This document shows positions 1,454 to 19,226 of a DNA stretch of 19,226 bases, piece after piece. This DNA comes from a virus. Its lineage: Duplodnaviria > Heunggongvirae > Uroviricota > Caudoviricetes. The first letter of the stretch is position 1. Each line of letters starts with the position of its first letter. The position numbers and the translations under genes were made by a program. The stretch is taken from positions 1 to 19,226 of the IMG/VR virus record IMGVR_UViG_2778261168_000002; one strand, 5' to 3'. Below the pieces are notes generated by a model that was not told the origin of the DNA, searched no databases, and saw nothing but the letters and a program-made list of their open reading frames with translations.

Positions 1454-1552
1454 CGCATCACCTCTGGCAGGCGCCAATGTTAGACTGAAATTGACGCCTG
1501 ATGTTGATTATTAATAATCAGCTATGAAGTTTTAATTTGAATACAATGCAAT

Positions 1553-1741: not shown

Positions 1742-1940
1742 GAACGCCTCCATTAATATTTTCAGTGGTTCGTTTATTCCATCTTTCGAGCGCTTCTTTT
1801 TCACTTCCACCATAGCCAGTTCGGGATTCGCATCCGTTGCATTTTGCCCGGTAATATCCTGAAATGTCTTTCACCGTTACTGATGGACAACCACAAAACG
1901 GACATGGTTTAACATCGTCATATCTCAAAGTTTTTGTCAT
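1734..1940 (-). CDS. ralR: Lar-family restriction alleviation protein (68 aa), zinc-ribbon CPFCG...CNGC
   Basis: Sequence MTKTLRYDDVKPCPFCGC...RAKCNGCESRTGYGG matches recalled RalR/Lar; start chosen at MTKTL rather than the upstream ORF-track start. Confidence 0.8.
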   Translation of the reverse strand: MTKTLRYDDVKPCPFCGCPSVTVKDISGYYRAKCNGCESRTGYGGSEKEALERWNKRTTENINGGVHV

Positions 1941-1984
1941 AAAAACTATCTCACGTTGGCGGTGCATTACACCGCCAGGCTGGA

Positions 1985-2818
1985 TTATTCTTCTGGATTA
2001 TCGATTACACTGTATTCCCCGGCTATAACCGATATGTCGTCTGGATTAATTGTTTCCACCTCTTTTCCATCCATCGATACTGCACGCTGGATTTCAATAG
2101 ATACCGGCAGATACTTGAACAGTTTTCGTATCACTGTCTTTTTGGCCATGTCTTCAAAGTGTTCATCCCAGATGGACGACGCCCCTTTTGACGCTGCGTT
2201 TTTTGCCGCCTTGCTGTGTGTGTCGCGAACTTTTTCTACTTGTTTGCGGGTCATGACTTCAAACTGCACTCCTCCGTCTTTCAGTTTTGCAACAGCATAG
2301 ACATGGGTTATAGGGGCATCTTCGTTTTCACCGGGACGATGAACCAGTTTTTCATCAAGGCCAAGTTCATAGCTGAATTCATCACATTCACGGACAACAC
2401 GAGCTGACAGACTGATGATTTGACCTGATCGACGGGCAAGGTCGATCATGCCGCGATAACCGATGATCAGCTGTACGTTCTTCTTACCGTTTTTTGCTTT
2501 TCCGTTGCCGAACGGTAGCAGATATGCATGACCGAGGGCGCTACCTGGCTCAAGTCCGAGCTGTGAACACTGTACGATGGCACCGATAAAACTCGTCGAG
2601 TCACAGTTTCTTAGTTCCGGTACTTTACGGATTTCTGTTGTAGCAATGCGGATCATGCGTTCCGCTGTCATGTGACGTGGCAGAGCTGCTGCCAGTTGCG
2701 CTTTCATTGCCGGGCTGTTAATCACGCACAGCACATCCTTATCGTTAACTGCTGCTGGTGCACGGTTTCCCTGAGTTTTTTGCAGATCGGCTTTTGCGAT
2801 AGGTGGTTGCTTAGTCAT
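1985..2818 (-). CDS. recT: RecT single-strand annealing recombinase (277 aa from [13 protein letters not shown])
   Basis: Strong match to recalled RecT; AAGGAG sits 7 nt upstream of the ATG at 2818; 8-nt overlap with the recE stop. Confidence 0.9.
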
Positions 2819-5462: not shown

Positions 5463-5532
5463 TGTTTTTTAACCTCAACTCAGATTAAAATTACTGCGAG
5501 TGATGAATAAATGTCCTAGGTTCTTCACTCAG

Positions 5533-5561
5533 GCCTGCACTCTGTGCAGGCTTTCTTTTTT
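5533..5561 (+). terminator. GC hairpin (GCCTGCAC-tctg-TGCAGGC) followed by a T-run on the plus strand, overlapping the racC stop
   Basis: Inverted repeat 5533-5551 and T-run 5552-5561 read directly; oriented against the leftward operon. Confidence 0.3.
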
Positions 5562-5836
5562 CAGATTTCACCGTTTAATTTCATTGCGATCATAGTTGCC
5601 AGAAATTCGGCTTTTTTTTCTGCAGGTAGATTCTTTCCGATATGCACCAGGCACATTTTTTTGACACCTTCATCAAGTGTTTTTACGTTGCCTGATGGAC
5701 CATCGATATCAACCACAGTGAATGGGGCTTCTTTATTTTCTGTTTTAATTACGTAGCCAATGCGCTTTCCTTCCAGATTCACCTCGTGAACAATATCATC
5801 GGTAGTTACAACAGTGGCTTCATAATTGGTAATCAT
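5561..5836 (-). CDS. racC: RacC (91 aa from MITNYEATVV)
   Basis: Matches recalled RacC; AAGGAG 6 nt upstream of ATG at 5836; ORF track extends 16 codons further upstream. Confidence 0.8.
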   Translation of the reverse strand: MITNYEATVVTTDDIVHEVNLEGKRIGYVIKTENKEAPFTVVDIDGPSGNVKTLDEGVKKMCLVHIGKNLPAEKKAEFLATMIAMKLNGEI

Positions 5837-5910
5837 GTTTTTCTCCTTAATTAAGGTTGAGCGAATACCTGCCATTTCTGGCATAAATTCAGTTTCGAAT
5901 AGTCAATTAA

Positions 5911-6081
5911 TTAAAGTTCGTGTGCCATCTGGTCTTTTTCGGCACAATTTTCACTACAATATTTTTTCATTTCCGTCGTTGGGATAACTCCACGCATGAA
6001 ATGAAGTGGTCTTTTAATGCTTTTGCTTTCTTCAATTCCTTTATTGCAAAGGTGGTAAGCACATTTTATTTTCTTAGTCAT
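5911..6081 (-). CDS. ydaE: YdaE-like small Cys-rich protein (56 aa, [12 protein letters not shown]...YCSENCAEKDQMAHEL)
   Basis: Hand-translated from the minus strand; below the ORF-track length cutoff; ATG overlaps the kilR stop (TGATG). Confidence 0.65.
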   Translation of the reverse strand: MTKKIKCAYHLCNKGIEESKSIKRPLHFMRGVIPTTEMKKYCSENCAEKDQMAHEL

Positions 6082-6302
6082 CACCATGACTCCGCCTTTA
6101 CAGGTAAACCATCACGACCGAGGAAGACTTTAATCATGCAGTCAGAAATGCATGTTTTTGTAGTCAGGTTACGAATATAAAGTTTTCGCTTTTTAATATT
6201 GTTTGCCGAGGCGATATATGTCCGGCCTTCATGAAGAACATAATCACCAGGAGTCACACACTGACGTGGTATTTCATCAGTTCCGAAGTGATGTGCAATC
6301 AT
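6081..6302 (-). CDS. kilR: KilR cell-division inhibitor (73 aa from [14 protein letters not shown])
   Basis: Matches recalled KilR; GGAG upstream of the ATG at 6302; ORF track starts 4 codons earlier. Confidence 0.8.
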
Positions 6303-6742
6303 AATTATCTCCATTTTTACAAATGAACTTTGTTGATGCGGTGCCTGGTGCCTCCAGGTGACTGCAACCAGTTAACAATTACAGTCGGCTTTCCCACCCA
6401 AACCAATAAGGACTAACATGACTTTTAACTGTGCCGCGTGCGCTTAGCCGCATTCACCGCATCACAAAATTCACTTTAAAAAGGGCGGACATCAGTCGAA
6501 CTTCAAGAAAAAACTGATGCCGCCAAGACTACACACAGCAGTGTTGTTATTCACAACCGGAGGCGCACTCCCACCATTTAAATTTAACAGACAAGACCGA
6601 CTCTTTATGGATATCGGAAATGCGCCTTCGTGTTGTGCCCGGTTTTATTTCACCACCTCCGGGCTTCGGTGGTCTCTGCTATACCCCTACAGCGAGAGCT
6701 TGTGTTAACATTTCAATACCCTTACAGTTGAGAGTTATTGAA

Positions 6743-7252
6743 ATGTTAGAAAGTCTTTTAACATTGGCAAAATTCTTTGCCGAAAAATCAGTTAGTCGGT
6801 TTATGATTACTATAGTTATATTTTTTCTGATATTAATGTTGGTACCAGAAAACTTGTCAGAGTATCTGGAAAAGAAAAGCGCCATTCCATATTCCATGCA
6901 GCTATTTTGCTTCAGCATAGCCTTTGTCTCGACTTTAATCCTTGATAGAGTAGTAATCCTTTTCTTGAGAATGTTCTACCTGATTCGGGGTTTTGTAAAA
7001 AAGCGTAAAATGCTAAAAAATCTGAATTCGCTAAATGCAGAACAAATTCGTATTATTGAACTTTTCCTTCAATATAATTGCCAACTTACGCTTTGTCCTG
7101 ATAACCCAAATGTCGCCTTACTTGTTAAAATGAGAATAATTAGTTTTGTGAGAAAATGTTCTTTGGGAAATGATTCCCAATTTCAGCTCAATCCTGAATA
7201 TGAGGATCTCATATTTGAAACATGGAATCCTTGCACTAAGCGCTTCGAATAA
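6743..7252 (+). CDS. sieB: Superinfection exclusion protein B (169 aa from MLESLLTLAKFF), membrane protein
   Basis: Matches recalled SieB; hydrophobic segments; AT-rich; the ORF-track N-terminal extension from 6620 is probably not translated. Confidence 0.75.
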   Translation: MLESLLTLAKFFAEKSVSRFMITIVIFFLILMLVPENLSEYLEKKSAIPYSMQLFCFSIAFVSTLILDRVVILFLRMFYLIRGFVKKRKMLKNLNSLNAEQIRIIELFLQYNCQLTLCPDNPNVALLVKMRIISFVRKCSLGNDSQFQLNPEYEDLIFETWNPCTKRFE

Positions 7253-7253
7253 G

Positions 7254-7409
7254 TCACTCCGTTAATGTTTTGACCAACCAGCGACGCGCGCCACCTTCGG
7301 TTTTAAACGTTTTGCTTTTGGTATATGTCATGGCGGTGAATGTTCCATCCTGGTTGGGGAACACGCCGCACACCAGGGATTCGTTATTGCCGAGGTCGAT
7401 TTTTTGCAT
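7254..7409 (-). CDS. ydaF: YdaF-like small protein (51 aa, MQKIDLGNNESLVCGVFPNQDGTF...)
   Basis: Hand-translated from the minus strand; not in the ORF track at this frame and length; matches recalled YdaF. Confidence 0.6.
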   Translation of the reverse strand: MQKIDLGNNESLVCGVFPNQDGTFTAMTYTKSKTFKTEGGARRWLVKTLTE

Positions 7410-7419
7410 TTTTCGCACC

Positions 7420-7554
7420 TCACATTTTGTTGTTGCGGATAGAGGCTTCTGCCTGCCAGAGATCCCAGTCGTTGCTGCGTAGAGTCTGTACAGCCTGGCT
7501 GTAAGTGATATCGCAACAATCCATCAAATACTGAACTACTTCGTAATGCACCAT
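7420..7554 (-). CDS. ydaG: YdaG-like small protein (44 aa, MVHYEVVQYLMDCCDITYSQAVQTLRSNDWDLWQAEASIRNNKM)
   Basis: Hand-translated; GGGGAG Shine-Dalgarno upstream of ATG at 7554; matches recalled YdaG. Confidence 0.6.
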   Translation of the reverse strand: MVHYEVVQYLMDCCDITYSQAVQTLRSNDWDLWQAEASIRNNKM

Positions 7555-7620
7555 CTTATCTCTCCCCTTAACGCCGGGTGGCGGAACTAAAACCTACAGC
7601 GCCGTGCTGCTTCTGTAATA

Positions 7621-7649
7621 ATATTAGTTATGTTCATATTAATGATCAA
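7621..7649 (-). promoter_or_regulatory. Candidate leftward (PL-like) sigma70 promoter: TTGATC-N17-TAATAT on the minus strand
   Basis: Hexamers read on the reverse complement of 7621-7649; positioned upstream of ydaG; overlaps a TTATG/TTCATA motif resembling the half-sites of the palindrome at 8264-8282. Confidence 0.35.
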
Positions 7650-7742
7650 TAGAAATATGCATTTTGTTGATAAAAATGTACTATCCTAATGAAATTTTTA
7701 GTGTTTTTTTTGATAAAAAGTAAGGCGGGGCGGGCGGAGGGG

Positions 7743-7770
7743 ACAAAAAAAACCGCCAAAAATGGCGGTT
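7743..7770 (-). terminator. Rho-independent terminator downstream of racR (hairpin AACCGCC-aaaaa-TGGCGGTT with a U-run on the minus strand)
   Basis: Inverted repeat 7751-7770 with an A-run 7745-7752 on the plus strand, i.e. a T-run after the hairpin on the minus strand. Confidence 0.6.
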
Positions 7771-7790
7771 TAGTTACGAGGTGGTGGGAG

Positions 7791-8255
7791 CTATTTCTTC
7801 ATGCGTTTTTGAGCTGCCAGCATATTTTCAAATGCTTCTTTGTAGAGTTCATTCTGACCTTTAAGTCTTTCGATTAGTTTTGCTTTTTCTGATTCGGGAA
7901 GGATATCAAAAAGATCTAGTAAATCAGCTTGTTGCTTGTTAACCATCCGCCAACCTTCGCCTTCGAAACTTTCGTCATAAGTTCCTGAGGAACGGACGTA
8001 ATTCATCAGATCAGCTAAATCAGGCCTCAACTCTTCAGGCTTAACTCTTAGTAATACAGCGAATTTTAATGCCGCATCAGTATTAAGTGGAGCCTTTCCG
8101 TTGAGATAATGGCTAACCGCAGATTGCGCCTCAAAACCCATTAGCTCGGCAGCAAGCTCCTGAGTCAGTTTGAGCTCTCTTTTTTTTGCATCCCAGATTG
8201 CGCGCAGACGTTGCGTAGCTTCCGGCGATGCGATTTCTTCGCGTTTTCTTCTCAT
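7791..8255 (-). CDS. racR: Prophage repressor RacR (154 aa), HTH DNA-binding
   Basis: ORF track 7791..8255 minus; matches recalled RacR; divergent from ydaS as expected for an immunity region. Confidence 0.85.
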   Translation of the reverse strand: MRRKREEIASPEATQRLRAIWDAKKRELKLTQELAAELMGFEAQSAVSHYLNGKAPLNTDAALKFAVLLRVKPEELRPDLADLMNYVRSSGTYDESFEGEGWRMVNKQQADLLDLFDILPESEKAKLIERLKGQNELYKEAFENMLAAQKRMKK

Positions 8256-8263
8256 ACCACCAT

Positions 8264-8282
8264 CTTATGAATACAGTTCATA
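8264..8282. promoter_or_regulatory. Candidate operator: inverted repeat TTATGAA-tacag-TTCATAA between racR and ydaS
   Basis: 7-bp arms with a 5-bp spacer read directly from the sequence. Confidence 0.4.
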
Positions 8283-8302
8283 ATCTCAAACTGATATAGG
8301 TA

Positions 8303-8331
8303 TTGATCATTTAAATTAGTATGGTTAATAT
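8303..8331 (+). promoter_or_regulatory. Candidate rightward (PR-like) sigma70 promoter TTGATC-N17-TAATAT driving ydaS-ydaT
   Basis: Same hexamer pair as the leftward candidate at 7621-7649; its -10 lies downstream of the ORF-track ATG at 8321, which argues for the 8360 start of ydaS. Confidence 0.4.
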
Positions 8332-8359
8332 TTTGGTGAGCATTACTAAGGTGACCCTT

Positions 8360-8635
8360 ATGACATTAGATGAATATTTGAAAAAAAATCGTGTACGACA
8401 GTCTTGTTTGGCCGCGCTGGCTGGTTGTTCGCAATCAATGATTAGCCTCGCTGCTACTGGACGTAGTCAGTTAAGCCCTGAAAAGGTATTGCGTATCGCA
8501 GAGGCTACGAATTTCGAGGTTACACCTCATGAACTCCGGCCTGATATCTACCCGAATCCGACCGATGGTTTACCTGTTGGATGTAAGGCTAACACACAAA
8601 ATACACAGGAGTTGATTCATGAAAATCAGGCATGA
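8360..8635 (+). CDS. ydaS: Cro-like HTH protein YdaS (91 aa from MTLDEYLKKNRV)
   Basis: AAGGTGA 6 nt upstream of ATG at 8360; HTH-like segment QSCLAALAGCSQSMIS; position immediately right of racR. Confidence 0.6.
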   Translation: MTLDEYLKKNRVRQSCLAALAGCSQSMISLAATGRSQLSPEKVLRIAEATNFEVTPHELRPDIYPNPTDGLPVGCKANTQNTQELIHENQA

Positions 8636-9041
8636 GCACATCGAATCAGTGCTGTTAGCCCTGGCAGCCGAAAAAGGGCAGGCGTGGGTCGCTAACGCAA
8701 TTACTGAAGAATATCTTCGCCAGGGGGGCGGCGAATTGCCCCTGGTACCAGGCAAGGACTGGAATAATCAGCAGAACATCTATCACCGTTGGTTAAAAGG
8801 TGAAACGGAAGTGCAAAGGGAAAAAATTCAGAAACTGATCCCAGCAATTCTGGCAATTCTTCCGCGCGAGCTGCGTCACCGACTCTGCATCTTCGATACC
8901 CTAGAACGCCGTGCATTACTGGCGGCGCAGGAAGCGTTGAGTACGGCAATTGATGCGCATGATGATGCAGTCCAGGCCGTTTACCGGAAAGCGCATTTCA
9001 GCGGCGGCGAGTCGTCCGGCGATTCTGTCGTAGTGCATTGA
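8619..9041 (+). CDS. ydaT: YdaT (140 aa), toxic partner of YdaS repressed by RacR
   Basis: ORF track 8619..9041; length and position match YdaT; ACAGGAG Shine-Dalgarno; 17-nt overlap with ydaS. Confidence 0.7.
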   Translation: MKIRHEHIESVLLALAAEKGQAWVANAITEEYLRQGGGELPLVPGKDWNNQQNIYHRWLKGETEVQREKIQKLIPAILAILPRELRHRLCIFDTLERRALLAAQEALSTAIDAHDDAVQAVYRKAHFSGGESSGDSVVVH

Positions 9042-9119
9042 TTGAAATTAATCGTGCCGGACTGTTTTGTTCGGTATCAGTTAAATGTAACGCTCACAGC
9101 GTTACAAGGTGAAAACAAT

Positions 9120-9914
9120 ATGGCTTCAAACTGGATAAAGCTCGAGGTTATTACGCCGGATAAGCCGGAAATATTCAGGCTTGCTGAGATTCTGAATATT
9201 GATCCAGATGCCGCATTAGGGAAAGTCATTCGCTTCTGGGCATGGGCGGATCAACAAATGATAGACGGTAACGCAGAGTGTAACGCACGCGGCGTTACAA
9301 AAAGCGCAATTGATCGCATCACTTTTATGGCTGGTTTTGCTGATGCGTTAATTCAGGTTGGATGGCTGGTCGAAACTAATGGTGTGTTGTCGCTTCCTAA
9401 CTTTGAGCGCCATAACGGGAAAAGCTCTAAAAAACGGGCGGTTACAAACGAGAGAGTTACAAAAATACGCGAACTGAAACGAAAAGGTAACGCTGCCAGC
9501 GTTACACAAACGGATCAAAAAGCGTTACCAGAGGAAGAGGAAGAGGAAGAGGAAGATATAAATACTGATCTCCCTCTAAATCTCCCTCACCAAAAACGAG
9601 CGACTAAAAAATTCGACCCGTCGTCAGTTGCTCTGCCTGAGTGGTTGCCGGAAACACTCTGGCATGAGTGGGTTCAATTCAGGCAGGCATTGCGAAAACC
9701 GATTCGAACGGAGCAGGGCGCTAACGGGGCGATACGGGAGCTGGAAAAATTCCGCCAGCAGGGTTTTACCCCTGAGCAGGTGATTAGACACAGCATTGCC
9801 CATGAATACCAGGGCTTGTTCGCGCCGAAAGGCGTTCGGCCTGAGACGTTGCTTCGACAGGTTAACACCGTCTCGTTTCCGGACAGTGCGATCCCACCAG
9901 GCTTCAGGGGGTAA
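9120..9914 (+). CDS. ydaU: Replication initiation protein YdaU-like (264 aa from MASNWIKLEV); contains an EEEEEEEED acidic run
   Basis: The ORF-track start at 9042 is a TTG codon; the first ATG with a Shine-Dalgarno-like GGTGA is at 9120; position upstream of the DnaC-like gene. Confidence 0.65.
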   Translation: MASNWIKLEVITPDKPEIFRLAEILNIDPDAALGKVIRFWAWADQQMIDGNAECNARGVTKSAIDRITFMAGFADALIQVGWLVETNGVLSLPNFERHNGKSSKKRAVTNERVTKIRELKRKGNAASVTQTDQKALPEEEEEEEEDINTDLPLNLPHQKRATKKFDPSSVALPEWLPETLWHEWVQFRQALRKPIRTEQGANGAIRELEKFRQQGFTPEQVIRHSIAHEYQGLFAPKGVRPETLLRQVNTVSFPDSAIPPGFRG

Positions 9915-9920
9915 CGAAGC

Positions 9921-10667
9921 ATGAAAAATATTGCGACAGGCGGCGTTCTGGAACGCATCCGCCGACTGACCCCGCCACATGTAACCGCGCCATTCAGGAC
10001 GGTGGCGGAGTGGCGCGAGTGGCAACTTGCAGAAGGCCAGAAACGTTGTGAGGAGATCAACCGTCAGAATCGTCAGTTGCGGGTGGAAAAAATCCTGAAT
10101 CGCTCCGGCATCCAGCCTTTGCACCGCAAATGCTCGTTTGCGAATTACCAGGTGCAGAACGACGGCCAGCGATACGCGTTGAGTCAGGCGAAATCTATCG
10201 CTGACGAACTGGTTACCGGATGCACAAATTTCGCGTTTAGCGGAATGCCTGGTACCGGAAAAAACCATCTGGTGGCGGCTATCGGGAATCGCCTGCTGAA
10301 AGATGGCCAGACAGTGATTGTGGTTACCGTGGCGGATGTCATGAGTGCTCTACACGCCAGCTATGACGACGGGCAATCAGGCGAAAAATTTTTGCGGGAA
10401 CTGTGCGAAGTGGATCTGCTGGTTCTTGATGAAATTGGCATTCAGCGCGAGACAAAAAACGAGCAGGTGGTGCTGCACCAGATTGTTGATCGCCGGACAG
10501 CGTCGATGCGCAGCGTGGGGATGCTGACAAACCTGAACTATGAGGCCATGAAAACATTGCTTGGCGAGCGGATTATGGATCGCATGACCATGAACGGCGG
10601 GCGCTGGGTGAATTTTAACTGGGAGAGCTGGCGCCCGAATGTTGGTCAGCCAGGAATTGAAAAGTAA
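9921..10667 (+). CDS. ydaV: DnaC-like helicase loader / IstB-like ATPase (248 aa)
   Basis: Walker [11 protein letters not shown] and Walker B LLVLDEIG; matches recalled YdaV. Confidence 0.85.
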
Positions 10668-10689
10668 TTTTTACCGGGAGGAAATTTTA

Positions 10690-11439
10690 ATGGAGACCGT
10701 TTTTGACGCACTGAAAGCAATGGGAAAAGCCACGTCGGTAGAACTGGCAGCGCGACTTGATATCAGTCGTGAAGAAGTGCTGAACGAGCTGTGGGAACTG
10801 AAAAAGGCTGGCTTCGTTGATAAAAGCGTATACACCTGGCGTGTGGTTGATAACAACGTTCAGCAGGAACATCCAGTGCCGGAAGAACAGCCGGAAGAAA
10901 TCGCCACGGCAACAGTGACGAAAATATCGGAGTGCGATTTAACCGCGACGATTGAACAACGTGGTCCACTAACTGCGGATGAACTGGCTACGTTGTTCGG
11001 TACCACATCACGCAAAGTGGCTTCAACGCTGGCAATGGCAATCAGCAAGGGGCGTCTGATTCGCGTAAATCAGAACGGTAAATTTCGTTACTGCATGCCG
11101 GGCGATAATTTACCAGCAGAACCGAAAGCTGCATTGGTAACGAAAAATGATGGTAAAGCCTTTCCTCAGCCAGCCGGTGTTGCGTTACCAGTACAGGAAG
11201 CGGCAACACAGGAAGATATTAAAACAGAAACTGTGGCGGACATTGTGCAGTCGCTGCCATCGTTTACTGAAACGCAAGCGAATGACCTGGTTTTACCATC
11301 GCTGCATATGGCAAACCGCGAACTGCGTCGGGCGAAAAATCATGTCCAGAAGTGGGAGCGTGTCTGCGCCGCGCTGCGGGAGCTGAACAAGCACCGGGAT
11401 ATTGTCCATAAAGTTATTGCAGCAGGTATGGAGAAATAA
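10690..11439 (+). CDS. Conserved prophage protein, YdaW-like by position (249 aa from [11 protein letters not shown])
   Basis: GGGAGG 9 nt upstream of ATG at 10690; N-terminal winged-helix-like segment; follows ydaV as ydaW does in Rac. Confidence 0.55.
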
Positions 11440-11624
11440 ATACTCCTGATTATATGAGTCATCCTGCTGCAGTTGTGACCAATATGAGCGGTTGTGCAGA
11501 GTTCTTCAGATAGAGGTAATGAAAACTGCGGTGATTTGTATTCGCTGCAGTTAATATAAGCTCGTCGTATTTTTTCATGAAATGTGATCTTAGTCATATT
11601 TATATCACGTCTATTTATCCGATT

Positions 11625-11640
11625 CTGATGAAATCATCAG
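11625..11640. promoter_or_regulatory. Perfect palindrome CTGATGA-aa-TCATCAG about 50 bp upstream of the 689-aa gene; candidate operator
   Basis: Read directly from the sequence; sits in the AT-rich leader. Confidence 0.3.
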
Positions 11641-11692
11641 GTGTTAAGATACTATTTGTGCTGTCACCTCAATGGTTTAAAAAGGAATCTGG

Positions 11693-13762
11693 ATGAAAGG
11701 TAATATTCTCGGGGATATCCGAGCTGAACATGACGAAAAGATGTTGGAAGCTTCATTTTGGCAAACAACTGATTATAAAGCTCTTCTCGAATCCTACGAT
11801 CGCTGCATCATTGTTGGCCGCAGAGGAACAGGAAAAAGTGCTCTGGTGCATATGCTTTCCAAACATTGGCATGCTAAGCCAAAAACCTATGTGATGACTA
11901 TTAGTCCGGTTGAAGAACAAATTATTGGATTAAGGGACGTTATTTCTTTATTTGGTGAAAATTACTTACATATAAAAGCCGGTAGCAAGTTAGCATGGCG
12001 ATATGCTATTTATATGGAGCTGCTTTCTGAGATCGCAAGTCATTACAAGATGAAAAACGATCTTGACTACAAAAGTGTAGAGTCGCATTTATTATCTTGG
12101 GGACCGAAGAGACAAAATATAAGTAGCAAAATAAGAAAAAAATTGAACACTATTCTCGATGATAACAAAAATATAAAACCAGCTACAAGAATAGCCGAAC
12201 TATCCGATAAATTTGAACTTGACTTATTGGAAGAGGTGATAGAAGAAGCAATTTCGAAGTCAAATAATCAATTTGTTATTTTTGCTGATAGACTTGATGA
12301 AGGCTATACACCGGATAATCTTGGTGTTGCAATAGTTGATGGTTTCATTCAGGCTGTGATTGATATAAAACAAAATATGAATGAAAAGGTTATTGCCTTT
12401 GCATTTGTTAGAGATAATATTCATCGAGCTATATCAAAAATGGACCCTGATTTCACTCGAAATATTGAAGGGCAAGTACTGAGATTACATTGGGATGAAT
12501 ATAACTTGTTTAATCTTGTATGCAATAGAATGAGGGTCGCTTTTAACTCAACCATTGAGAATAACACGAGGGTGTGGAATGCTTACACCGCAAATGAATT
12601 ACAGTCTAATACCGGTTTTAAAGAAACATTGAAACTGACTCTATATAGGCCAAGAGATATTTTGGTTTTGTTAAATAATGCATTCTTGCGAGCAAACACA
12701 CATGATCGTAATCGTATTGTCATTGATGACATTCAAGCAACAGCGAATACTATTTCACAAAATAGACTCAATGATTTGTTAAAAGAATATGAGAATGTAT
12801 TTCCTGCATTAGATATATTTACATCGCAATTTGCTAATAGCAAACCTTACTACAGTGTTTCTGAAGCGTCATCTAAGATACAATATGCCCTTGATCTCAA
12901 TGGCGTTATTGACAAGATGAAAATGCAGGATTTACTTCTTTTTGAAGGGCCAATCCAGGTGATTCAACGACTTTACAGTGTTGGATTTATTGGGTTGTAT
13001 AACCAGCAGTCATCTTCATATGTATTTTGCCATGACGGTAAGGAACCTGAAAAAGAATTTACACCAGATTCAAAATTGCTATTGCATCCATGCTACTGGC
13101 TAGCATTAAGTGTTCATGAATCAGAGATGACTCCCGATGCTGCTGATGATATTCATGATGAATATGATATTGAGGTCAGCTCTGTTTCCGAAGAGCAGAG
13201 GAAACAACGAATCGGTTCGTTGCTCCAAGAACTACATAATATACCTGAAGGACCTGAAGGTGCTGTCGATTTTGAAGCATGGGCGCTCAAAACTATAAAG
13301 TTACTATTTGCTACGAATTTAACAAACATTGAGTTGCATCCCAATAAAAATGGGTTGCAGCAAAGAGATATTATAGCGACAAATATAGCTGACACTCCAG
13401 TTTGGAAGAGAATTCTGACAGATTATCAGACACGGCAAGTTGTTTTTGAAGTGAAAAACTATAAAACATTAGGTGCTGCAGAATATAGACAGGTAAATTC
13501 CTATTTGTTTAAAGACTATGGGCGGATAGCTTTTATCATAAATAGAGATCATACAGAGAATTTAGAAAAACATAAAGAACTTACGTGGGTAAAAGAAATT
13601 TATGATAATCATAATAAATTAGTTGTGAAGTTACCCTCTAAGTTCCTTGAAAGACATCTGTCAAAAATGAGAAGCCCGCAAAAACATGACGAAGTTAATA
13701 AACAATTAGGTAAACTGCTCGATCAGTACATAAGGGTCTATTTAAATAATAAATGTAAGTAA
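11693..13762 (+). CDS. 689-aa P-loop NTPase with C-terminal PD-(D/E)xK-like nuclease motif; candidate single-gene anti-phage defence or abortive-infection protein
   Basis: Walker A GRRGTGKS (residues 42-49); Walker B-like FVIFADRLDE; C-terminal QRDIIATN...VVFEVKNYK...EYRQ fits a D...ExK nuclease core; AAGGA Shine-Dalgarno; visibly AT-rich relative to flanking genes; own terminator. Confidence 0.85.
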   Translation: MKGNILGDIRAEHDEKMLEASFWQTTDYKALLESYDRCIIVGRRGTGKSALVHMLSKHWHAKPKTYVMTISPVEEQIIGLRDVISLFGENYLHIKAGSKLAWRYAIYMELLSEIASHYKMKNDLDYKSVESHLLSWGPKRQNISSKIRKKLNTILDDNKNIKPATRIAELSDKFELDLLEEVIEEAISKSNNQFVIFADRLDEGYTPDNLGVAIVDGFIQAVIDIKQNMNEKVIAFAFVRDNIHRAISKMDPDFTRNIEGQVLRLHWDEYNLFNLVCNRMRVAFNSTIENNTRVWNAYTANELQSNTGFKETLKLTLYRPRDILVLLNNAFLRANTHDRNRIVIDDIQATANTISQNRLNDLLKEYENVFPALDIFTSQFANSKPYYSVSEASSKIQYALDLNGVIDKMKMQDLLLFEGPIQVIQRLYSVGFIGLYNQQSSSYVFCHDGKEPEKEFTPDSKLLLHPCYWLALSVHESEMTPDAADDIHDEYDIEVSSVSEEQRKQRIGSLLQELHNIPEGPEGAVDFEAWALKTIKLLFATNLTNIELHPNKNGLQQRDIIATNIADTPVWKRILTDYQTRQVVFEVKNYKTLGAAEYRQVNSYLFKDYGRIAFIINRDHTENLEKHKELTWVKEIYDNHNKLVVKLPSKFLERHLSKMRSPQKHDEVNKQLGKLLDQYIRVYLNNKCK

Positions 13763-13771
13763 TTCAATCTT

Positions 13772-13803
13772 TACCGAAAGATCATGTATCTTTCGGTATT
13801 TTT
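13772..13803 (+). terminator. Rho-independent terminator of the 689-aa gene (TACCGAAAGAT-catgt-ATCTTTCGGTA plus T-run)
   Basis: 11-bp stem and TTTTT read directly, 10 nt after the stop codon. Confidence 0.65.
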
Positions 13804-13888
13804 AAGCGAGAGTAATCAAAATCGTAATGAGAGCTATATAATAATGTGTATAGATTGATTTACGAACGCTTCAACATTTACCGTTATT

Positions 13889-13987
13889 ATGACGGTAAAT
13901 GTTGCAAGGAAAGACCTCTGCGAGGTACGAATCCGAACCGGTCAGACGGAGGTCGCTGTCTTCAGAGCTTACGAATCTGAGGAGTAA
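13889..13987 (+). pseudogene. hok-family toxin remnant retaining the conserved C-terminus (RKDLCEVRIRTGQTEVAVFRAYESEE) but lacking the N-terminal transmembrane segment
   Basis: Hand translation; C-terminal match to the Hok/Gef family (HokD/RelF-like); upstream in-frame sequence is not hydrophobic and runs into a stop at 13856. Confidence 0.55.
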
Positions 13988-14055
13988 GAGACCTGGCGGG
14001 GGAGAAATCCCTCGCCACCTCTCATGTGTCAGGCATCCTCAAAGCACCCGCACTT

Positions 14056-14081
14056 AACCCGCTTCGGCGGGTTTTGTTTTT
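14056..14081 (+). terminator. Rho-independent terminator (CCCGC-ttcg-GCGGG plus TTTTGTTTTT) at the 3' end of the hok-like transcript
   Basis: Hairpin and T-run read directly. Confidence 0.6.
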
Positions 14082-14160
14082 CATGAATAAGGGATTAATA
14101 ATTTTAACTGAAGTTATATTACCTTGTGGCCCGATAAGTTAATTAATTATCAATGCGCCT

Positions 14161-14250
14161 GTATTGTTTGTATTGTTTGCATTGTTTGTATTGTTTGTAT
14201 TATTTGTATTGTTTGTATTGTTTTTATTATTTGCGTTGTTTGTGGTTTTA
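14161..14250. repeat. Degenerate tandem array of about 10 copies of the 9-bp unit GTATTGTTT
   Basis: Units at 14161, 14170, 14179, 14188, 14197, 14206, 14215 and following, with single-base variants (GCATTGTTT, GTATTATTT, GCGTTGTTT). Confidence 0.85.
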
Positions 14251-14381
14251 TCTTTTTGGGTTTATTTTTTGCGTTGCTTAGAAATAAAGATTAATTAGAA
14301 TCCTCCTGTTTTGAGTAGCGCGCAGGGACAAGAGGGATGGACCCTGAGAAGGGGGTGCTATTTATCCGGAAGGATTCTTTG

Positions 14382-14555
14382 ATGAATATCGAAAAAATTC
14401 GTGAAACTTTTAGTGAAAATGGCCTCTATGCTGTGCGCGTTGAGAATGGAGAAGTTATCTACACAACGTTAATTCCTGATGATCATGTGATTTTATCTAT
14501 CGAGGCATTCATTGAATACCTGGAAAGGCTTGGTTTCAAGGTGGCTAGGGAATGA
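14382..14555 (+). CDS. Small hypothetical phage protein (57 aa from MNIEKIRETF)
   Basis: GGAAGGA about 7 nt upstream of ATG at 14382; the ORF-track start at 14337 has no usable spacing to a Shine-Dalgarno. Confidence 0.4.
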   Translation: MNIEKIRETFSENGLYAVRVENGEVIYTTLIPDDHVILSIEAFIEYLERLGFKVARE

Positions 14556-14614
14556 GTTATAATTCGTAAGCCAGCTTGAACAACTGGCAACCTACAGCGC
14601 CATTGGAGATAGCA

Positions 14615-15214
14615 ATGGCGCATATACAACTGATCAAACAAACTTCTTCCGGTTTACTGCTCCCGGCGACGCCGGAGAGTTGCGATTTTCTGCATCAAAT
14701 CAAAATAGGTGAGTGGATACACGCAGACTTTAAGCGTGTGCGTAACTACGCATTCCACAAGCGTTTTTTCAAACTCCTGCAACTGGGATTCGATTACTGG
14801 ACTCCGGTCGGTGGGGCGATCACACCTCGCGAACGAGAACTGCTGTCTGGTTTCGTGGATTACTTGTGCGAATCAGTTGGTCGGGAACACACACCAGCCC
14901 TGAGTGATGCCGCAGAGCAATATCTAAATACCGTTGCGACACGCAGAACCCGGGATACGGCATTGCTTAAGTCATTTGAGGCTTTCCGCGAGTGGGTAAC
15001 CATTCAGGCCGGATTTTACACCGAGCATATTTATCCGGACGGTAGCCGTGGGCGCAGGGCGAAATCCATCGCGTTTGCGAATATGGACGAAACCGAGTTT
15101 CAGCAGGTTTATAAATCTGTACTGAATGTGCTGTGGAACTGGATTCTGTTCCGTAAATTCTCCTCTCAGGAGGAAGTTGAAAATGTGGCCGCACAACTAC
15201 TGGAGTTTGCGTAA
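14615..15214 (+). CDS. Conserved lambdoid nin-region protein (199 aa from MAHIQLIKQ), tentatively DUF1367-like
   Basis: The ORF-track start at 14576 is TTG; the first ATG with a GGAGA Shine-Dalgarno is at 14615; position upstream of the ybcO-like and Q-like genes. Confidence 0.55.
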   Translation: MAHIQLIKQTSSGLLLPATPESCDFLHQIKIGEWIHADFKRVRNYAFHKRFFKLLQLGFDYWTPVGGAITPRERELLSGFVDYLCESVGREHTPALSDAAEQYLNTVATRRTRDTALLKSFEAFREWVTIQAGFYTEHIYPDGSRGRRAKSIAFANMDETEFQQVYKSVLNVLWNWILFRKFSSQEEVENVAAQLLEFA

Positions 15215-15504
15215 TGGTGAATTTACGTAAAGCGGCTAAAGGCCAGATGTGCCAGATCAGAATCCCTGGCTACTGCAATCACAATCCCGAAACCTCTGTG
15301 CTGGCGCATTACAGGCTGGCGGGGACGTGCGGAACAGCGACAAAACCACACGATATGCAGGCGGCGATAGCCTGTAGCTCATGCCACGATCTAATCGACG
15401 GGCGGGTAAAAACCAGCGATTACACCAAAGAAGAATTGCGCCTGATGCATGCTGAAGGGGTTTTTCGCACACAAGAAATCTGGAGAAAGAAAGGTCATTT
15501 ATGA
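15214..15504 (+). CDS. YbcO-like Cys-rich putative nuclease (DUF1364-type, 96 aa)
   Basis: Pattern NLRKAAKG.CQIRIPG.CN.NPETSVLAH..L.G.CG...KP.D...IACSSCHD resembles recalled DLP12 YbcO; start overlaps the upstream stop (TAATG). Confidence 0.65.
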   Translation: MVNLRKAAKGQMCQIRIPGYCNHNPETSVLAHYRLAGTCGTATKPHDMQAAIACSSCHDLIDGRVKTSDYTKEELRLMHAEGVFRTQEIWRKKGHL

Positions 15505-16043
15505 TTTACCCAACGAATACAGGAAAAAGCGGAGAACACCTTCGCCTCACCACGCTGGAAAGTGTCTGGATTCAGGGAAAACTACGTATGTGGGGGCGCT
15601 GGTCGTATATTGGCGGTGGCAGGTCAGGGAATATGTTCAATCAGTTGTTGGCATCCAAAAAACTGACGAAAACAGCCATTAATGAAGCCCTGCGCAGAAT
15701 GAAAAAAGCGGGAATAGAGAAAGCTGAGCTGGAAGCGTTTTTGCGAGAGATGATCAACGGCAAGCAAAAGAGCTGGCTGGCGCATTGTACTGATGCAGAG
15801 GCGTTATGTATTGATCGAGTCATAAGTGAGGTGCTGGCAGAGCATCCAGGATTGATTTGCATTCTCCGGCAACGCTATGAAGGGCGGGGGATGACTAAGC
15901 GCAAAATGGCTGAATTGCTAAATGATGCACACCCAGAGTGGTGTTTTAGCACATGCGAAAAACGGATTGCTAATTGGTTAGCTGTTGCTGAGTATGCCCT
16001 ATATATTCCCATGCGTGAATCATTTGCTGAGAAAATGGCTTGA
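15501..16043 (+). CDS. Putative late-gene antiterminator (Q-like, 180 aa)
   Basis: Positional: last gene before a strong terminator and the lysis cassette; ATGA overlap with the preceding gene; family assignment is from context, not from a recognised motif. Confidence 0.5.
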   Translation: MIYPTNTGKSGEHLRLTTLESVWIQGKLRMWGRWSYIGGGRSGNMFNQLLASKKLTKTAINEALRRMKKAGIEKAELEAFLREMINGKQKSWLAHCTDAEALCIDRVISEVLAEHPGLICILRQRYEGRGMTKRKMAELLNDAHPEWCFSTCEKRIANWLAVAEYALYIPMRESFAEKMA

Positions 16044-16123
16044 TTTCTTACGTATAAACTGCTTCAATTTTGCTATGCTTCGCAAAGCTGTATCGCGAGG
16101 CGGATTGCAGACATGGACATCGT

Positions 16124-16150
16124 AAAAAAACCGCTTAATGCGGTTTTTTT
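16124..16150 (+). terminator. tR'-like rho-independent terminator (AAACCGC-ttaat-GCGGTTT plus T7) about 85 bp after the Q-like gene
   Basis: Hairpin and T-run read directly; the 16044-16123 leader would hold a PR'/qut-like site. Confidence 0.6.
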
Positions 16151-17028
16151 ACGTCAGGAAAGCAGGGGAGAATGCTGCTAGTTGGGCAACTGGTCTTTCT
16201 GCTCCAAATTATAACAGAGACCAGTTATAGTTTCGGTGCTGTGTTTTTTTTACAATATTGTGATAACACATTGCTGGCGGGAGTTTTGATATTTCTTGGC
16301 AGGGGCTGATGATGCGTTATCCTGATGTCGTCAACTCATATAAAATGAGATGAGAGATCATTGCAGGGTGGTTTGTAATTCGCTGTTTAGCGGGACAATA
16401 TGTTGTCTGATACAAGACACCCGACGCCTCAGATTACTATAATAAAGACGAAGCATCCTTTGTATTGACCAACCGCCTGTTTAGGCGGTTCTTTTTGGGC
16501 TGGTTTATTGTATGCCAAATGATTATTAAAAAGGTTGTGTTAATAACAAAATCCGAAATAATATGCCTGCATATTTTTATCTTGCTTATATTCTGCATAT
16601 TGTGCATAGCAGGCTCATCCCTGCAATCAAAACTGTATGATGAGTATTTTTTGTTTTCCTTTTTTCCAGTCATCTGATGATGACCTGCTTCTTTTTAATC
16701 CGGATCGACATCAGTTTTTTAAGATAATTCCTGCGAGTTATATGCATAAATGCCACAAACTCCGCATTTTATGTGGTTGGGAGTTGCCGGGCGCGCAGTG
16801 AGTTTGCTAAGAAAACTCCTGCATGGTGAATCCCCCTGTGCGGTGGGGTGATACCATTAACCTTTTCTGTCGCCGACAGGTATCACGAACATTTTGTTCA
16901 CCGGGAGGCACCCGGCACCATGCACTTCAATAGATTCTCTCCACATTATGGATATTCTTTCAGAATATCCCACGCAGACTTTGTGTAAATGTTAACAAAT
17001 GTGCGTTTTATTTGATCTGATTCGCTGT

Positions 17029-17058
17029 TTGAGCGTCCAAAACAACGGTATATATAAT
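17029..17058 (+). promoter_or_regulatory. Candidate sigma70 promoter TTGAGC-N18-TATAAT upstream of the first TolA-like lipoprotein gene
   Basis: Consensus -10 TATAAT at 17053-17058; -35-like TTGAGC at 17029-17034; GAGGA Shine-Dalgarno before ATG at 17088. Confidence 0.45.
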
Positions 17059-17087
17059 CCTTTACTATATGACATATGTGAGGAAAA

Positions 17088-17516
17088 ATGGGTTTTCGTA
17101 GCGCATCAATTCTTACGTTGATTATTAGTGGGATTATTATCGGGTGCACTGATGCTGTATCGACAAATTATCATGACCGTACATCATATTACTCCGATAA
17201 AGCAATAGAGACACAGTATGTGAGTTCATCTGAACGTACTTCTGATGTTAGTGAGGATATCCGTCTGTATGCCCATCAAATCAAGAGCGCCATCGAAAAA
17301 CAGTTCGGGGATGCGAGTAAGTATTCAGGAAAAGAGTGTACACTGAGAATGCATATGGCCCCGAATGGCCTTCTACTGGAGGTTAAAAGAGAAAGTGGAG
17401 ACCTCGATTTATGTCGTGAAGCGATGAATGCGATAAAGAATGCTGATATACCTGCCCCCCCTTCGCCGGAAGTATATAAAGTATTTCAAAATGGGGTGCT
17501 GGATTTTAAACCCTGA
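17088..17516 (+). CDS. Lipoprotein with TolA C-terminal (domain III)-like domain (142 aa)
   Basis: Lipobox IIGC after a signal peptide; C-terminus QIKSAIEKQFGDASKYSGKECTLRMHMAPNGLLLEV...LCREAMNAIKNADIPAPPSPEVYKVFQNGVLDFKP closely parallels the recalled C-terminus of E. coli TolA. Confidence 0.8.
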   Translation: MGFRSASILTLIISGIIIGCTDAVSTNYHDRTSYYSDKAIETQYVSSSERTSDVSEDIRLYAHQIKSAIEKQFGDASKYSGKECTLRMHMAPNGLLLEVKRESGDLDLCREAMNAIKNADIPAPPSPEVYKVFQNGVLDFKP

Positions 17517-17666
17517 TATTTATTGTTTTGTAATAAACGGTTTCGGCTTAGGTTTGTTCTGACACAGCTACGGCACTGAGCTAAATTTAGCGGATAGTCA
17601 GCTCTGAGCCAGTGGCGGACGTAACAACTACTATTGCTGAGATTTTAATGGATTGAGGAGCAAGAA

Positions 17667-18062
17667 GTGGGATTAAAGAAAATCGTTATGTTGACTTTTT
17701 GGGTCGGTTTTGTTGCGGGATGCACACCTTTACACCCTTCAGATTGCCACAAAACTACTGCTACAGGTAGTTGCAGTTCAGGACGCTGGGATGATCAGGA
17801 TGAATGGGGGGCGCAAGCGCGGGGAATCAGAGCTGCAATTAATGCCAAACTTGATGAGCCGCATAACTGGAAAGGGAAAAAATGCAGGTTGCATATGGAA
17901 TTCTCTCAGGATGGCACGGCGTTAAAAATATCTACCAGTAACGGTGATAAAGCCTATTGCGAAGCGATAAAGTCCGCAGCTCATAAAGCCAAATTTCCGG
18001 CCTTCAACAATCCGGAAGTCTACAGAGATTTTCAGAAATCTGGCTTTGACATGCGAGGTTAG
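17667..18062 (+). CDS. Second lipoprotein with divergent TolA-III-like C-terminal domain (131 aa; GTG start)
   Basis: Lipobox VAGC; GAGGAG 6 nt upstream of GTG at 17667; C-terminus KCRLHMEFSQDGTALKI...YCEAIKSAAHKAKFPAFNNPEVYRDFQKSGFDMRG is paralogous to the upstream protein. Confidence 0.7.
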   Translation: MGLKKIVMLTFWVGFVAGCTPLHPSDCHKTTATGSCSSGRWDDQDEWGAQARGIRAAINAKLDEPHNWKGKKCRLHMEFSQDGTALKISTSNGDKAYCEAIKSAAHKAKFPAFNNPEVYRDFQKSGFDMRG

Positions 18063-18187
18063 CTCTTCAATTACTATATCTCATTCATAGCAAACTGACA
18101 GATTTGATGATGTTCTATATACGAAACCTGTGATGTCAAGTCTGAGCTAATACAAATAAACATAATATCAGAGAAATACATTTTATT

Positions 18188-18212
18188 AGCTCGCTACGGC
18201 GAGCTTTTTATA
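18188..18212 (+). terminator. Hairpin AGCTCGC-tacg-GCGAGCT plus T-run downstream of the lipoprotein pair
   Basis: Read directly from the sequence. Confidence 0.45.
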
Positions 18213-18313
18213 TTGCATCGTCTCCAGCATATATATCAATTAAGGCTCTGATTGATGTGTCTGAAAGCCTACACATAATAACTATGCCATCCGTTCCGTG
18301 CGGAGGTGAGGCT

Positions 18314-18529
18314 ATGAAATCCATGGACAAAATTTCAACAGGCATTGCCTACGGCACCTCCGCAGGCAGTGCTGGCTACTGGTTTTTACAGTTGCTCGAT
18401 AGAGTAACTCCGTCACAGTGGGCTGCAATCGGTGTGCTGGGTAGTCTGGTATTTGGCCTGCTGACGTACCTGACAAACCTTTATTTCAAGATTAAAGAAG
18501 ATAAGCGCAAGGCTGCGAGAGGTGAATAA
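18314..18529 (+). CDS. Phage-21-type class II holin (pinholin S21-like, 71 aa from [10 protein letters not shown]; dual-start motif)
   Basis: Matches recalled S21; GGAGGTGAG Shine-Dalgarno; ORF track extends upstream from a GTG. Confidence 0.8.
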
Positions 18530-19026
18530 TGCCTCCATCATTACGAAAAGTCGTTGCTGCTGCTATTGGTGGCGGAGCAATTGCTATAGCATCAGTGTTA
18601 ATCACTGGCCCAAGTGGTAACGATGGTCTGGAAGGTGTCAGCTACATACCATACAAAGATATTGTTGGTGTATGGACTGTATGTCACGGGCATACAGGAA
18701 AAGACATCATGCTCGGTAAAACGTATACCAAAGCAGAATGCAAAACACTCTTGAATAAAGACCTTGCCACTGTCGCCAGACAAATTAACCCGTACATCAA
18801 AGTCGATATACCGGAAACAACGCGCGGCGCTCTTTACTCATTCGTTTACAACGTGGGTGCTGGCAATTTCAGAACATCGACGCTTCTTCGCAAAATAAAC
18901 CAGGGCGATATCAAAGGCGCATGTGATCAGCTACGTCGCTGGACATATGCTGGCGGTAAGCAATGGAAAGGTCTCATGACTCGTCGTGAGATTGAGCGTG
19001 AAATCTGTTTGTGGGGTCAGCAATGA
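18529..19026 (+). CDS. SAR endolysin (R21-like lysozyme, 165 aa) with N-terminal signal-anchor-release segment
   Basis: Gly/Ala-rich hydrophobic N-terminus [20 protein letters not shown] followed by a lysozyme-like domain; start overlaps the holin stop (TAATG). Confidence 0.85.
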
Positions 19027-19226
19027 ACAGAGTAACCGCGATTATCTCCGCTCTGGTTATCTGCATCATCGTCTGCCTGTCATGGGCTGTTAATCATTAC
19101 CGTGATAACGCCATTACCTACAAAGCCCAGCGCGACAAAAATGCCAGAGAACTGAAGCTGGCGAACGCGGCAATTACTGACATGCAGATGCGTCAGCGTG
19201 ATGTTGCTGCGCTCGATGCAAAATGA
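19023..19226 (+). CDS. Rz-like i-spanin, only 67 aa before an in-frame TGA at the window edge (possibly truncated)
   Basis: [67 protein letters not shown] matches the N-terminal part of lambda-type Rz (about 153 aa); ATGA overlap with the endolysin stop. Confidence 0.6.

Follow-up and report, generated by a model that had tools for sequence, protein, structure and literature searches.

Energy for colicin import is transduced by two envelope hubs, TolA for group A colicins and TonB for group B colicins. The C-terminal domain III of TolA (TolA-III; residues ~334–421 in Escherichia coli; Protein Data Bank (PDB) entries 1S62, 3QDP/3QDR, 1TOL, and 2X9A) is a hub for the N-terminus of TolB, for colicins A and N, and for the g3p protein of the filamentous (Ff) phages. 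Superinfection exclusion by Ff phages operates through the sequestration of TolA by g3p, and colicin tolerance reportedly also results from TolA-III placed alone in the periplasm. Here we describe two tandem open reading frames, ORF-A and ORF-B, each encoding a predicted lipoprotein that ends in a copy of this docking domain. They lie in a 19,226-nucleotide (nt) stretch of DNA from a member of the Caudoviricetes (IMG/VR record IMGVR_UViG_2778261168_000002, positions 1 to 19,226; hereafter, the window), which corresponds to the Rac prophage.

The ligand-binding surfaces of TolA-III have been mapped. The N1 domain of g3p binds through the first helix (residues 334–349) and by strand addition to beta3; TolA with the substitution D418P or K420P no longer binds g3p-N1, colicin N, or TolB and confers a tol phenotype, and the Yersinia TolA has VKFPQ at the beta3 strand (Ridley and Lakey 2015). 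The colicin A site consists of K368, L375–P380, L392, and K396 (Li et al. 2012). Colicin E9 leaves the TolB N-terminus disordered and so promotes TolB–TolA contact.

Among described proteins, E. coli TolA is one of the nearest counterparts of the two, which share the fold and disulfide pair of its domain III and, in ORF-A, the docking residues of helix 1 and beta3; TolA, however, carries domains I and II and is encoded in the tol-pal operon, whereas ORF-A and ORF-B have a lipobox signal peptide in place of those domains and lie elsewhere in the genome. Engineered TolAIII exported to the periplasm is reported to perturb the Tol system, its overproduction causing E. coli to leak periplasmic proteins (Levengood-Freyermuth et al. 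1993 and Wan and Baneyx 1998, as cited in a later study). This construct is an isolated, exported TolA-III competing with native TolA, as we propose for ORF-A and ORF-B, but it is laboratory-made, of host sequence, soluble, and overproduced, whereas the present proteins are natural, diverged, predicted to be lipid-anchored, and carried on mobile elements.

Other mobile elements encode small outer-membrane lipoproteins that protect against phage, colicin, or DNA, such as Cor (phi80, N15, and the mEp phages), Llp (T5), and TraT (F), to which ORF-A and ORF-B may be likened. The target that those proteins block is a receptor in the outer membrane (FhuA, OmpA), whereas ours would mimic a periplasmic import hub, and Pfam, PHROG, and PADLOC searches found no kinship in sequence or fold between the two groups. 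Exclusion and colicin tolerance caused by Ff g3p would involve the same TolA-III/g3p-N1 interaction with the roles reversed, g3p being a ligand mimic that sequesters host TolA and ORF-A and ORF-B receptor mimics. In their genomic setting the two genes resemble the late-operon morons, such as stx in Shiga toxin (Stx) phages and bor and lom in lambda, which are likewise cargo downstream of Q/pR' or in late operons but specify unrelated products.

Two Predicted Lipoproteins Ending in a TolA Docking Domain

An earlier note on this DNA had proposed that both proteins end in a TolA-III-like domain, and Pfam, phmmer, and AlphaFold2 (AF2) models compared by Foldseek all agree on this, far beyond chance. 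The Pfam family PF06519 (TolA_C) matches ORF-A at 82.6 bits (E = 2.4e-23) and ORF-B at 54.6 bits (E = 1.3e-14), both above the gathering threshold of 25. In a phmmer comparison with PDB sequences, residues 55–142 of ORF-A align to E. coli TolA 334–421 (E = 5e-28), and ORF-B aligns over the same region (E = 5e-9). The AF2 models give the domains a predicted local distance difference test score of ~90 and leave the N-terminal parts, with a 30–40-residue linker, disordered. Superposition on TolA-III, the check that the note had called for, yielded a root-mean-square deviation of 0.6 Å, a TM score of 0.94, and 60% identity for ORF-A (against 2x9a_B) and 1.1 Å, 0.92, and 31% for ORF-B (against 3qdp). 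Counted over E. coli TolA 334–421, identity is 52/88 (59%) for ORF-A and 27/88 for ORF-B. ORF-A contains all three of the TolA-like motifs that had been picked out by eye (QIKSAIE, GKxCTLR, and IPxPPSxxVYxVFxNxxLDFKP), and the description of ORF-B as its more divergent paralog holds at 29% identity (E = 2e-18).

Neither protein is a TolA. Domain I, the N-terminal transmembrane anchor that engages TolQ and TolR, is absent from both, its place being taken by lipoprotein signal peptides of 19–20 residues; the long, helical, periplasm-spanning domain II is also absent, and the proteins are 142 and 131 amino acids long, compared with 421 for TolA. Because domains I and II are missing, ORF-A and ORF-B cannot transduce force. 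The locus is outside the ybgC-tolQRA-tolB-pal-cpoB operon. Whole-TolA profiles are matched only in part (positions 265–362 of 362 in TIGR02794 and 293–386 of 387 in NF007065); ORF-A scores 107.8 against a cut-off of 213 for NF007065 and 75.6 against a cut-off of 59.45 for TIGR02794, and ORF-B falls under both cut-offs. It is because this domain-only match exceeds the TIGR02794 cut-off that the Prokaryotic Genome Annotation Pipeline (PGAP) names ORF-A "cell envelope integrity protein TolA." PHROG 5772 ("unknown function") is matched by both proteins over its full 128-position profile (E = 1.6e-62 for ORF-A and 6.7e-65 for ORF-B), and they are members of Pfam TolA_C and of PHROG 5772.

The two lipobox signal peptides that the note had read in the tandem ORFs, ending in IIGC and VAGC, are present as described (Table 1). 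Both fit the pattern [LVI][ASTVI][GAS]C after a positively charged n-region and a hydrophobic core, and the Cys is invariant in an alignment of 20 ORF-A- and ORF-B-type homologs. From this pattern both proteins are predicted to be lipidated, and the Thr (rather than Asp) at position +2 of each suggests, by the Lol rule, Lol-dependent sorting to the outer membrane. The ORF-B signal peptide (MGLKKIVMLTFWVGFVAGC, followed by TP) depends on the choice of start codon. PGAP and RefSeq place the start at a later ATG (17688), giving a protein of 124 amino acids that loses the charged MGLKK n-region; we prefer the GTG at 17667 because it stands 5 bases 3' of a GAGGAG Shine-Dalgarno sequence and because the homologs begin with MGVKK.

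The linkers differ in character. That of ORF-A (residues 21–54) is rich in Ser, Thr, and Tyr and disordered. The ORF-B linker carries a C-x8-C motif and the sequence SSGRWDDQDEW, both kept in an alignment of copies from Escherichia, Citrobacter, Enterobacter, Serratia, and Klebsiella; the C-x8-C also recurs in six distant clusters of the family (P0168, P0171, P0177, P0180, P0185, and P0186). A possible "TolB box" in this linker was considered: SSGRWDDQDEWG is only loosely like DGSGWSSENNPWG, which we take to be the TolB-box sequence of colicin E9, from which it differs in spacing and by an extra Arg, and Trp47 of ORF-B falls within the N-terminal helix of the AF2 model. We regard the TolB-box idea as one of low probability.

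Recent capture of ORF-A from a host tolA gene was rejected, because blastn, sensitive down to ~65–70% identity, found no DNA-level match of ORF-A to the chromosomal tolA of any genome. A neighbor-joining tree of 88 columns is star-like and compatible with either a single or a repeated origin of the lipoprotein forms from TolA.

Table 1. Positions and Properties of the Features Discussed (Window Coordinates Unless an Accession Is Given)
Feature	Position	Strand	Description
ORF-A	17088..17516	+	142 amino acids; ATG after GAGGAA; lipobox IIGC (Cys20, +2 Thr); linker 21–54; TolA-III 55–142
ORF-A lipoprotein signal peptide (predicted)	17088..17147	+	MGFRSASILTLIISGIIIGC, then TD; lipobox I-I-G-C; Arg in n-region; hydrophobic core
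ORF-A TolA domain III	17250..17513	+	Residues 55–142; helix QIKSAIE; Cys84-Cys109 pair; terminal strand LDFKP
ORF-B	17667..18062	+	131 amino acids; GTG start; lipobox VAGC (Cys19, +2 Thr); C-x8-C linker; divergent TolA-III 44–131
ORF-B linker motif	17745..17774	+	CHKTTATGSC (C27-x8-C36), then SSGRWDDQDEW (to 17790; residues 27–42)
ORF-B TolA domain III	17796..18059	+	Residues 44–131; Cys73-Cys98 pair; terminal strand FDMRG
Sigma-70 promoter-like site	17029..17058	+	TTGAGC, 18-nt spacer, TATAAT (17053–17058); 10/12 consensus; 30 nt 5' of ORF-A
STnc100 (RF02076) prophage small RNA	16791–16977	+	Rfam 86.6 bits (gathering score 47); directly 5' of ORF-A
Intrinsic-terminator-like hairpin	18188..18205	+	AGCTCGC-TACG-GCGAGCT, then TTTTTAT; between ORF-B and holin
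Mobile module	16897..18530	+	ORF-A upstream region, ORF-A, ORF-B, terminator, S21-type holin; ~99% identical across phages whose Q and endolysin genes are unrelated
Gene order			intR, xisR, ralR/RalA, recT, recE, kilR, sieB, P-loop ATPase, DUF1367, DUF1364, DUF1133 protein, ORF-A, ORF-B, S21-type holin, endolysin, further lysis gene, trkG
Klebsiella ColRNAI operon	NZ_CP031718 1512–2245	-	TolA-III lipoprotein of 123 amino acids (ends NAPLDFRP) and signal-peptide TonB C-terminal-domain protein of 121 amino acids

Docking Residues and Selection

The surface by which TolA receives g3p-N1, colicin N, and TolB is closely reproduced in ORF-A, in which 13/16 residues of the helix corresponding to TolA 334–349 are identical (QIKSAIE exactly so) and the terminal strand L-D-F-K-P is that of TolA, D418 and K420 included. 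ORF-B retains the physicochemical pattern of the strand, as F-D-M-R, and few of the helix residues. Across 55 clusters of short lipoproteins, conservation is relatively high at D418, F419, and K420 and lowest on the colicin A face, a pattern that taxon sampling may bias.

Purifying selection acts on both genes. When ORF-A is compared with its variants, the ratio of nonsynonymous to synonymous substitution rates (dN/dS) is 0.09–0.29 in the TolA-III domain and 0.34–0.78 in the signal peptide and linker; for ORF-B, compared with the copies on pO157 and IncK plasmids, it is 0.11–0.12 over the whole gene, 0.17–0.19 in the signal peptide and linker, and 0.07–0.08 in TolA-III.

A Moron Cassette of the Rac Prophage

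The window matches the Rac prophage at ttcA, and its left part is identified as Rac by the RalA antitoxin small RNA (1557–1735, + strand; Rfam 218 bits), which lies antisense to ralR/rcbA (1553–1813, - strand). The gene preceding ORF-A, which encodes a DUF1133 protein, is Q-like, its Pfam match to Q antiterminators being borderline. In E. coli K-12 MG1655 (NC_000913.3, 1422752–1423782), a truncated ydaW joins rzpR/rzoR/trkG directly; the segment deleted between ydaW and rzpR comprises the P-loop ATPase, the Q-like gene, STnc100, ORF-A, ORF-B, the holin, and the endolysin, so that K-12 has neither ORF-A nor ORF-B.

That P-loop ATPase, a protein of 689 amino acids (11693–13762, + strand) encoded between the replication genes and the Q-like gene, is called "Sll1717 family" by PGAP and has weak Pfam matches to ORC/CDC6-like, AAA_16, and nSTAND3 domains and weak PADLOC candidate matches (PDC-M36A, PDC-M28C); it is possibly a prophage-borne defense gene.

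The position of ORF-A between Q and the holin, with or without ORF-B, is constant across 80 viral contigs, in which it is accompanied by Q genes of three unrelated types and by various lysis cassettes. When the window was compared by blastn with five loci, including that of phage mEp460_ev081, homology began sharply at 16897 and ended at the holin stop (18516–18530). An A-only locus is homologous over 16711–17517 only, and because the homology of such variants stops at 17517, ORF-B is a separate insert; both A-only and A-plus-B forms are found. ORF-A-type variants lacking ORF-B (A', 65–68% identity) have the order Q, methylase, tRNA-Ile/Arg, A', nanS-p esterase, DUF826, holin. The slot between the tRNAs and nanS-p is the exact position of stx in Stx phages, and the proposal that the genes lie where those phages carry their toxin is thus borne out. 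Insertion between conserved modules, presence in some phages and absence from others, and a sharp mosaic boundary, the marks of a lambdoid-phage moron, are all found in the cassette, so that its two genes can be classed as accessory, moron-type cargo of a lambdoid prophage of the Rac type. As to mEp460_ev081, it is an "ev" derivative of mEp460 and may have acquired the module from a resident prophage by recombination.

From gene position, late transcription of ORF-A and ORF-B through Q is expected. Directly upstream is the prophage small RNA STnc100, which spans the left mosaic boundary (16897), has been related to the PasD small RNAs near Q genes (2026 preprint), and may be a short pR'-proximal transcript. 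A terminator scan found no terminator between ORF-A and ORF-B; the hairpin that follows ORF-B has a folding free energy of -16.4 kcal/mol and a z score of -3.3 relative to shuffled sequences. The near-consensus TATAAT from which the earlier note had suggested expression in lysogens is present, but as a sign of such expression it fares poorly: promoter-like matches in the ORF-A upstream region are not enriched over shuffles (11 found, 7.1 ± 2.6 expected), and the site is not conserved, the upstream regions of the A' genes failing to align with it. Expression of the two genes in lysogens is therefore presumptive. A ciprofloxacin study of enterohemorrhagic E. coli that seemed to offer expression support was set aside, its text tying "TolA" to EDL933_2012 and its supplement listing a tail fiber protein.

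Distribution on Prophages, Plasmids, and Chromosomes

ORF-A occurs in 898 of 5,426 complete E. coli genomes (~16%), and in 774 of the 5,426 the A-plus-B cassette is at least 99% identical. B-type genes (~88% protein identity) are found on ~600 plasmids of E. coli and Shigella, on pO157 in the leading region after psiB-psiA-hok and on IncK2/Z plasmids directly 3' of the relaxase gene, and occur as chromosomal singletons of 79–89% identity in Citrobacter, Enterobacter, Serratia, and Klebsiella. The Serratia marcescens copy (84% identity) lies between nrdDG and the phn genes, beside a GmrSD_N (DUF262) and HEPN (MAE_28990/RiboL-PSP) pair, a neighborhood that looks like a small defense islet. An exhaustive profile search extended the family to 575 clusters (50% identity, E <= 1e-3); about half of the best 150 of these are of 110–190 amino acids with a lipobox.

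A clonal family of K. pneumoniae ColRNAI plasmids of 10–12 kb accounts for 379 records with an operon that pairs a TolA-III lipoprotein with a TonB C-terminal-domain protein (Table 1). In NZ_CP031718 this operon and a colicin-E3-like rRNase bacteriocin gene (3091–5277, + strand), which is accompanied by its immunity and lysis genes, are divergently oriented. Like ORF-A and ORF-B, the Klebsiella lipoprotein has a lipobox and a TolA-III domain (ending in LDFRP), is mobile, and appears uncharacterized; it differs from them in its TonB-domain partner and in the adjoining bacteriocin operon, and is ~27% identical to ORF-B. On Klebsiella IncR-type plasmids, as in K. pneumoniae NZ_CP141857 (5217–6246), a further TolA-III lipoprotein (144 amino acids, ending in ALDFRL) is encoded directly 3' of a periplasmic signal-peptide protein of thioredoxin fold (DsbC/TraF-like), possibly a disulfide helper specific to this domain with its two Cys residues.

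Homologs of ORF-A and ORF-B carry names derived from homology (the domain) only. PADLOC returned no defense-protein match for either protein, and a search of the full-text literature available without subscription found no functional study of the family.

Candidate Functions

Tentatively, and at a likelihood that we put a little short of even, we favor the reading that ORF-A and ORF-B act as unpowered decoys for Tol-dependent ligands. Each would be a version of the TolA docking domain held by a lipid anchor, probably in the outer membrane, and lacking the TolQR-coupling domains I and II. Tethered beneath the outer membrane, they would present the beta-strand-augmentation site of TolA-III to incoming ligands, namely the N-terminus that TolB exposes when loaded with colicin, the translocation domains of such colicins as N and perhaps A, and g3p N1. 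A captured ligand would then sit on a dead-end partner rather than on TolA coupled to the proton motive force, and the carrier would gain tolerance to Tol-dependent bacteriocins and resistance to TolA-dependent phages. With its E. coli-like site, ORF-A may cover different ligands from ORF-B, whose site is divergent. Both the binding and the protective phenotype are predictions from sequence and gene context, and modulation of Tol-Pal through TolB binding is equally compatible with the sequence evidence.

That such mimics could serve as decoys had been suggested in the earlier note, and the idea emerges strengthened, short of proof, by the docking residues of ORF-A, the purifying selection, the plasmid and chromosomal B-type genes, and the Klebsiella operon. 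The moron anatomy of the cassette (its sharp boundary, the terminator after ORF-B, and the three Q types) counts for the decoy reading. So do the genuine TolA-III fold of both proteins, the relative conservation of D418, F419, and K420 across the lipoprotein clusters, and the precedents of engineered periplasmic TolAIII and of Ff exclusion through g3p. A benefit to living carriers is argued by the B-type copies on plasmids and chromosomes and by the TolA-III/TonB-domain operon on a bacteriocin plasmid; a role in lysis makes no sense for the former.

Several observations weigh against the decoy reading. Both genes lie in a Q-dependent late operon beside the holin, and an autonomous ORF-A promoter is a consensus match only. 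Affinities of TolA-III for its ligands are weak, in the micromolar range (40–200 uM for TolB), so that a decoy would have to be locally abundant, and capture of TolB by it should carry a cost by impairing Tol-Pal. A decoy aimed specifically at colicin A, as had also been suggested, finds little favor, the contact residues being partly retained in ORF-A (K368 is replaced by H and P380 by R) and largely lost in ORF-B. Among 50,697 sequenced phage genomes, the cassette is confined to that of mEp460_ev081 (LR597641, 19998–21631). A-type genes are nearly never on plasmids (3/962 places), which, like the late-operon location, fits a role in lytic growth as well. Many members of the wider family are chromosomal singletons with no bacteriocin or phage link, and the Klebsiella operon is a single clonal instance.

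The main rival, which we nonetheless consider improbable, makes the two proteins antagonists of Tol-Pal in the lytic cycle. Abundant expression from the late transcript antiterminated by Q would allow them to titrate the TolB N-terminus away from TolA, stop the mobilization of Pal, and loosen the outer membrane, and the resulting leakiness and vesiculation would aid lysis or progeny release, or would shed vesicles. The location of both genes between Q and holin, in one module with the S21 holin, is what this predicts; so are the restriction of A-type genes to prophages and the retention in ORF-A of the TolB-binding strand, in which D418P and K420P abolish TolB binding in TolA and give a tol phenotype, and the release of periplasmic proteins on TolAIII overproduction is damage of the kind envisaged. 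The phage, however, already encodes lysis functions of its own (a holin, a signal-anchor-release-type endolysin, and spanin-like genes); strong purifying selection maintains B-type and related genes on plasmids and chromosomes, where cell lysis never follows; and loosening of the outer membrane leaves the TonB-domain pairing in Klebsiella unexplained.

A change of partner is an alternative that bears on ORF-B especially, and one that we judge unlikely while giving it some weight: the TolA/TonB-type fold would serve as a beta-augmentation adaptor for another envelope protein, whether by plugging or modifying an outer-membrane receptor, as Cor and Llp do with FhuA, or in a housekeeping role in the envelope. 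ORF-B, at 31% identity to TolA-III, has lost most residues of the colicin A site and of helix 1, and its conserved C-x8-C loop and W-rich motif, in a linker evolving at the low dN/dS given above, suggest an extra binding element; the fold is common to TonB, which docks on outer-membrane transporters, and many chromosomal singletons stand in unrelated neighborhoods. Yet gene neighborhood points to no candidate partner, the consensus of the lipoprotein family is the TolA consensus at most positions, and ORF-A, which retains the known docking site, is nearer to E. coli TolA-III (59–60%) than to any other lipoprotein cluster (<=57%). To the remaining possibility, that the genes are nonfunctional debris, captured tolA fragments mislabeled as TolA by PGAP, we give almost no credence. 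The PGAP name, the domain-only score that exceeds the TIGR02794 cut-off, and the often defective state of Rac could be cited for it, but selection and conservation refute it: both ORFs are unbroken and have a proper signal peptide and Shine-Dalgarno sequence, dN/dS is well under 1, the cassette and ORF-A are conserved in the hundreds of genomes counted above, the reading frame is kept in diverged variants, and there is no DNA-level likeness to chromosomal tolA.

If the decoy reading of ORF-A and ORF-B is extended to their relatives, mobile elements of the Enterobacterales would carry a general class of "import-hub mimics." Exported and lacking a motor, these would copy the docking domain of TolA or, in the case of some plasmids, that of TonB as well, and make their carrier broadly tolerant of bacteriocins and phages that depend on Tol or Ton. 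The Rac pair would then represent two specificities of such a system, overlooked for decades because K-12 has deleted that part of Rac. This generalization is possible but doubtful, and is offered as a hypothesis.

Implications

The genes themselves were already known, annotated by domain; what would be new is the proposed function, exclusion or tolerance conferred by mobile elements. Should ORF-A and ORF-B prove instead to be Tol-Pal antagonists, they would be natural tools for controlled destabilization of the outer membrane and for vesicle production. If they are decoys, they would represent a new principle of colicin tolerance and superinfection exclusion, in which a periplasmic import hub is copied, rather than a receptor blocked or a toxin neutralized. 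A sizable fraction of natural strains would possess it, through ORF-A in E. coli and through related genes on pO157, IncK/Z plasmids, and the common Col plasmids of Klebsiella. The performance of bacteriocin- and phage-based antimicrobials against clinical isolates, as compared with K-12, would be affected, as would the interpretation of colicin sensitivity typing and the ways in which Tol-Pal can be tuned in vivo.

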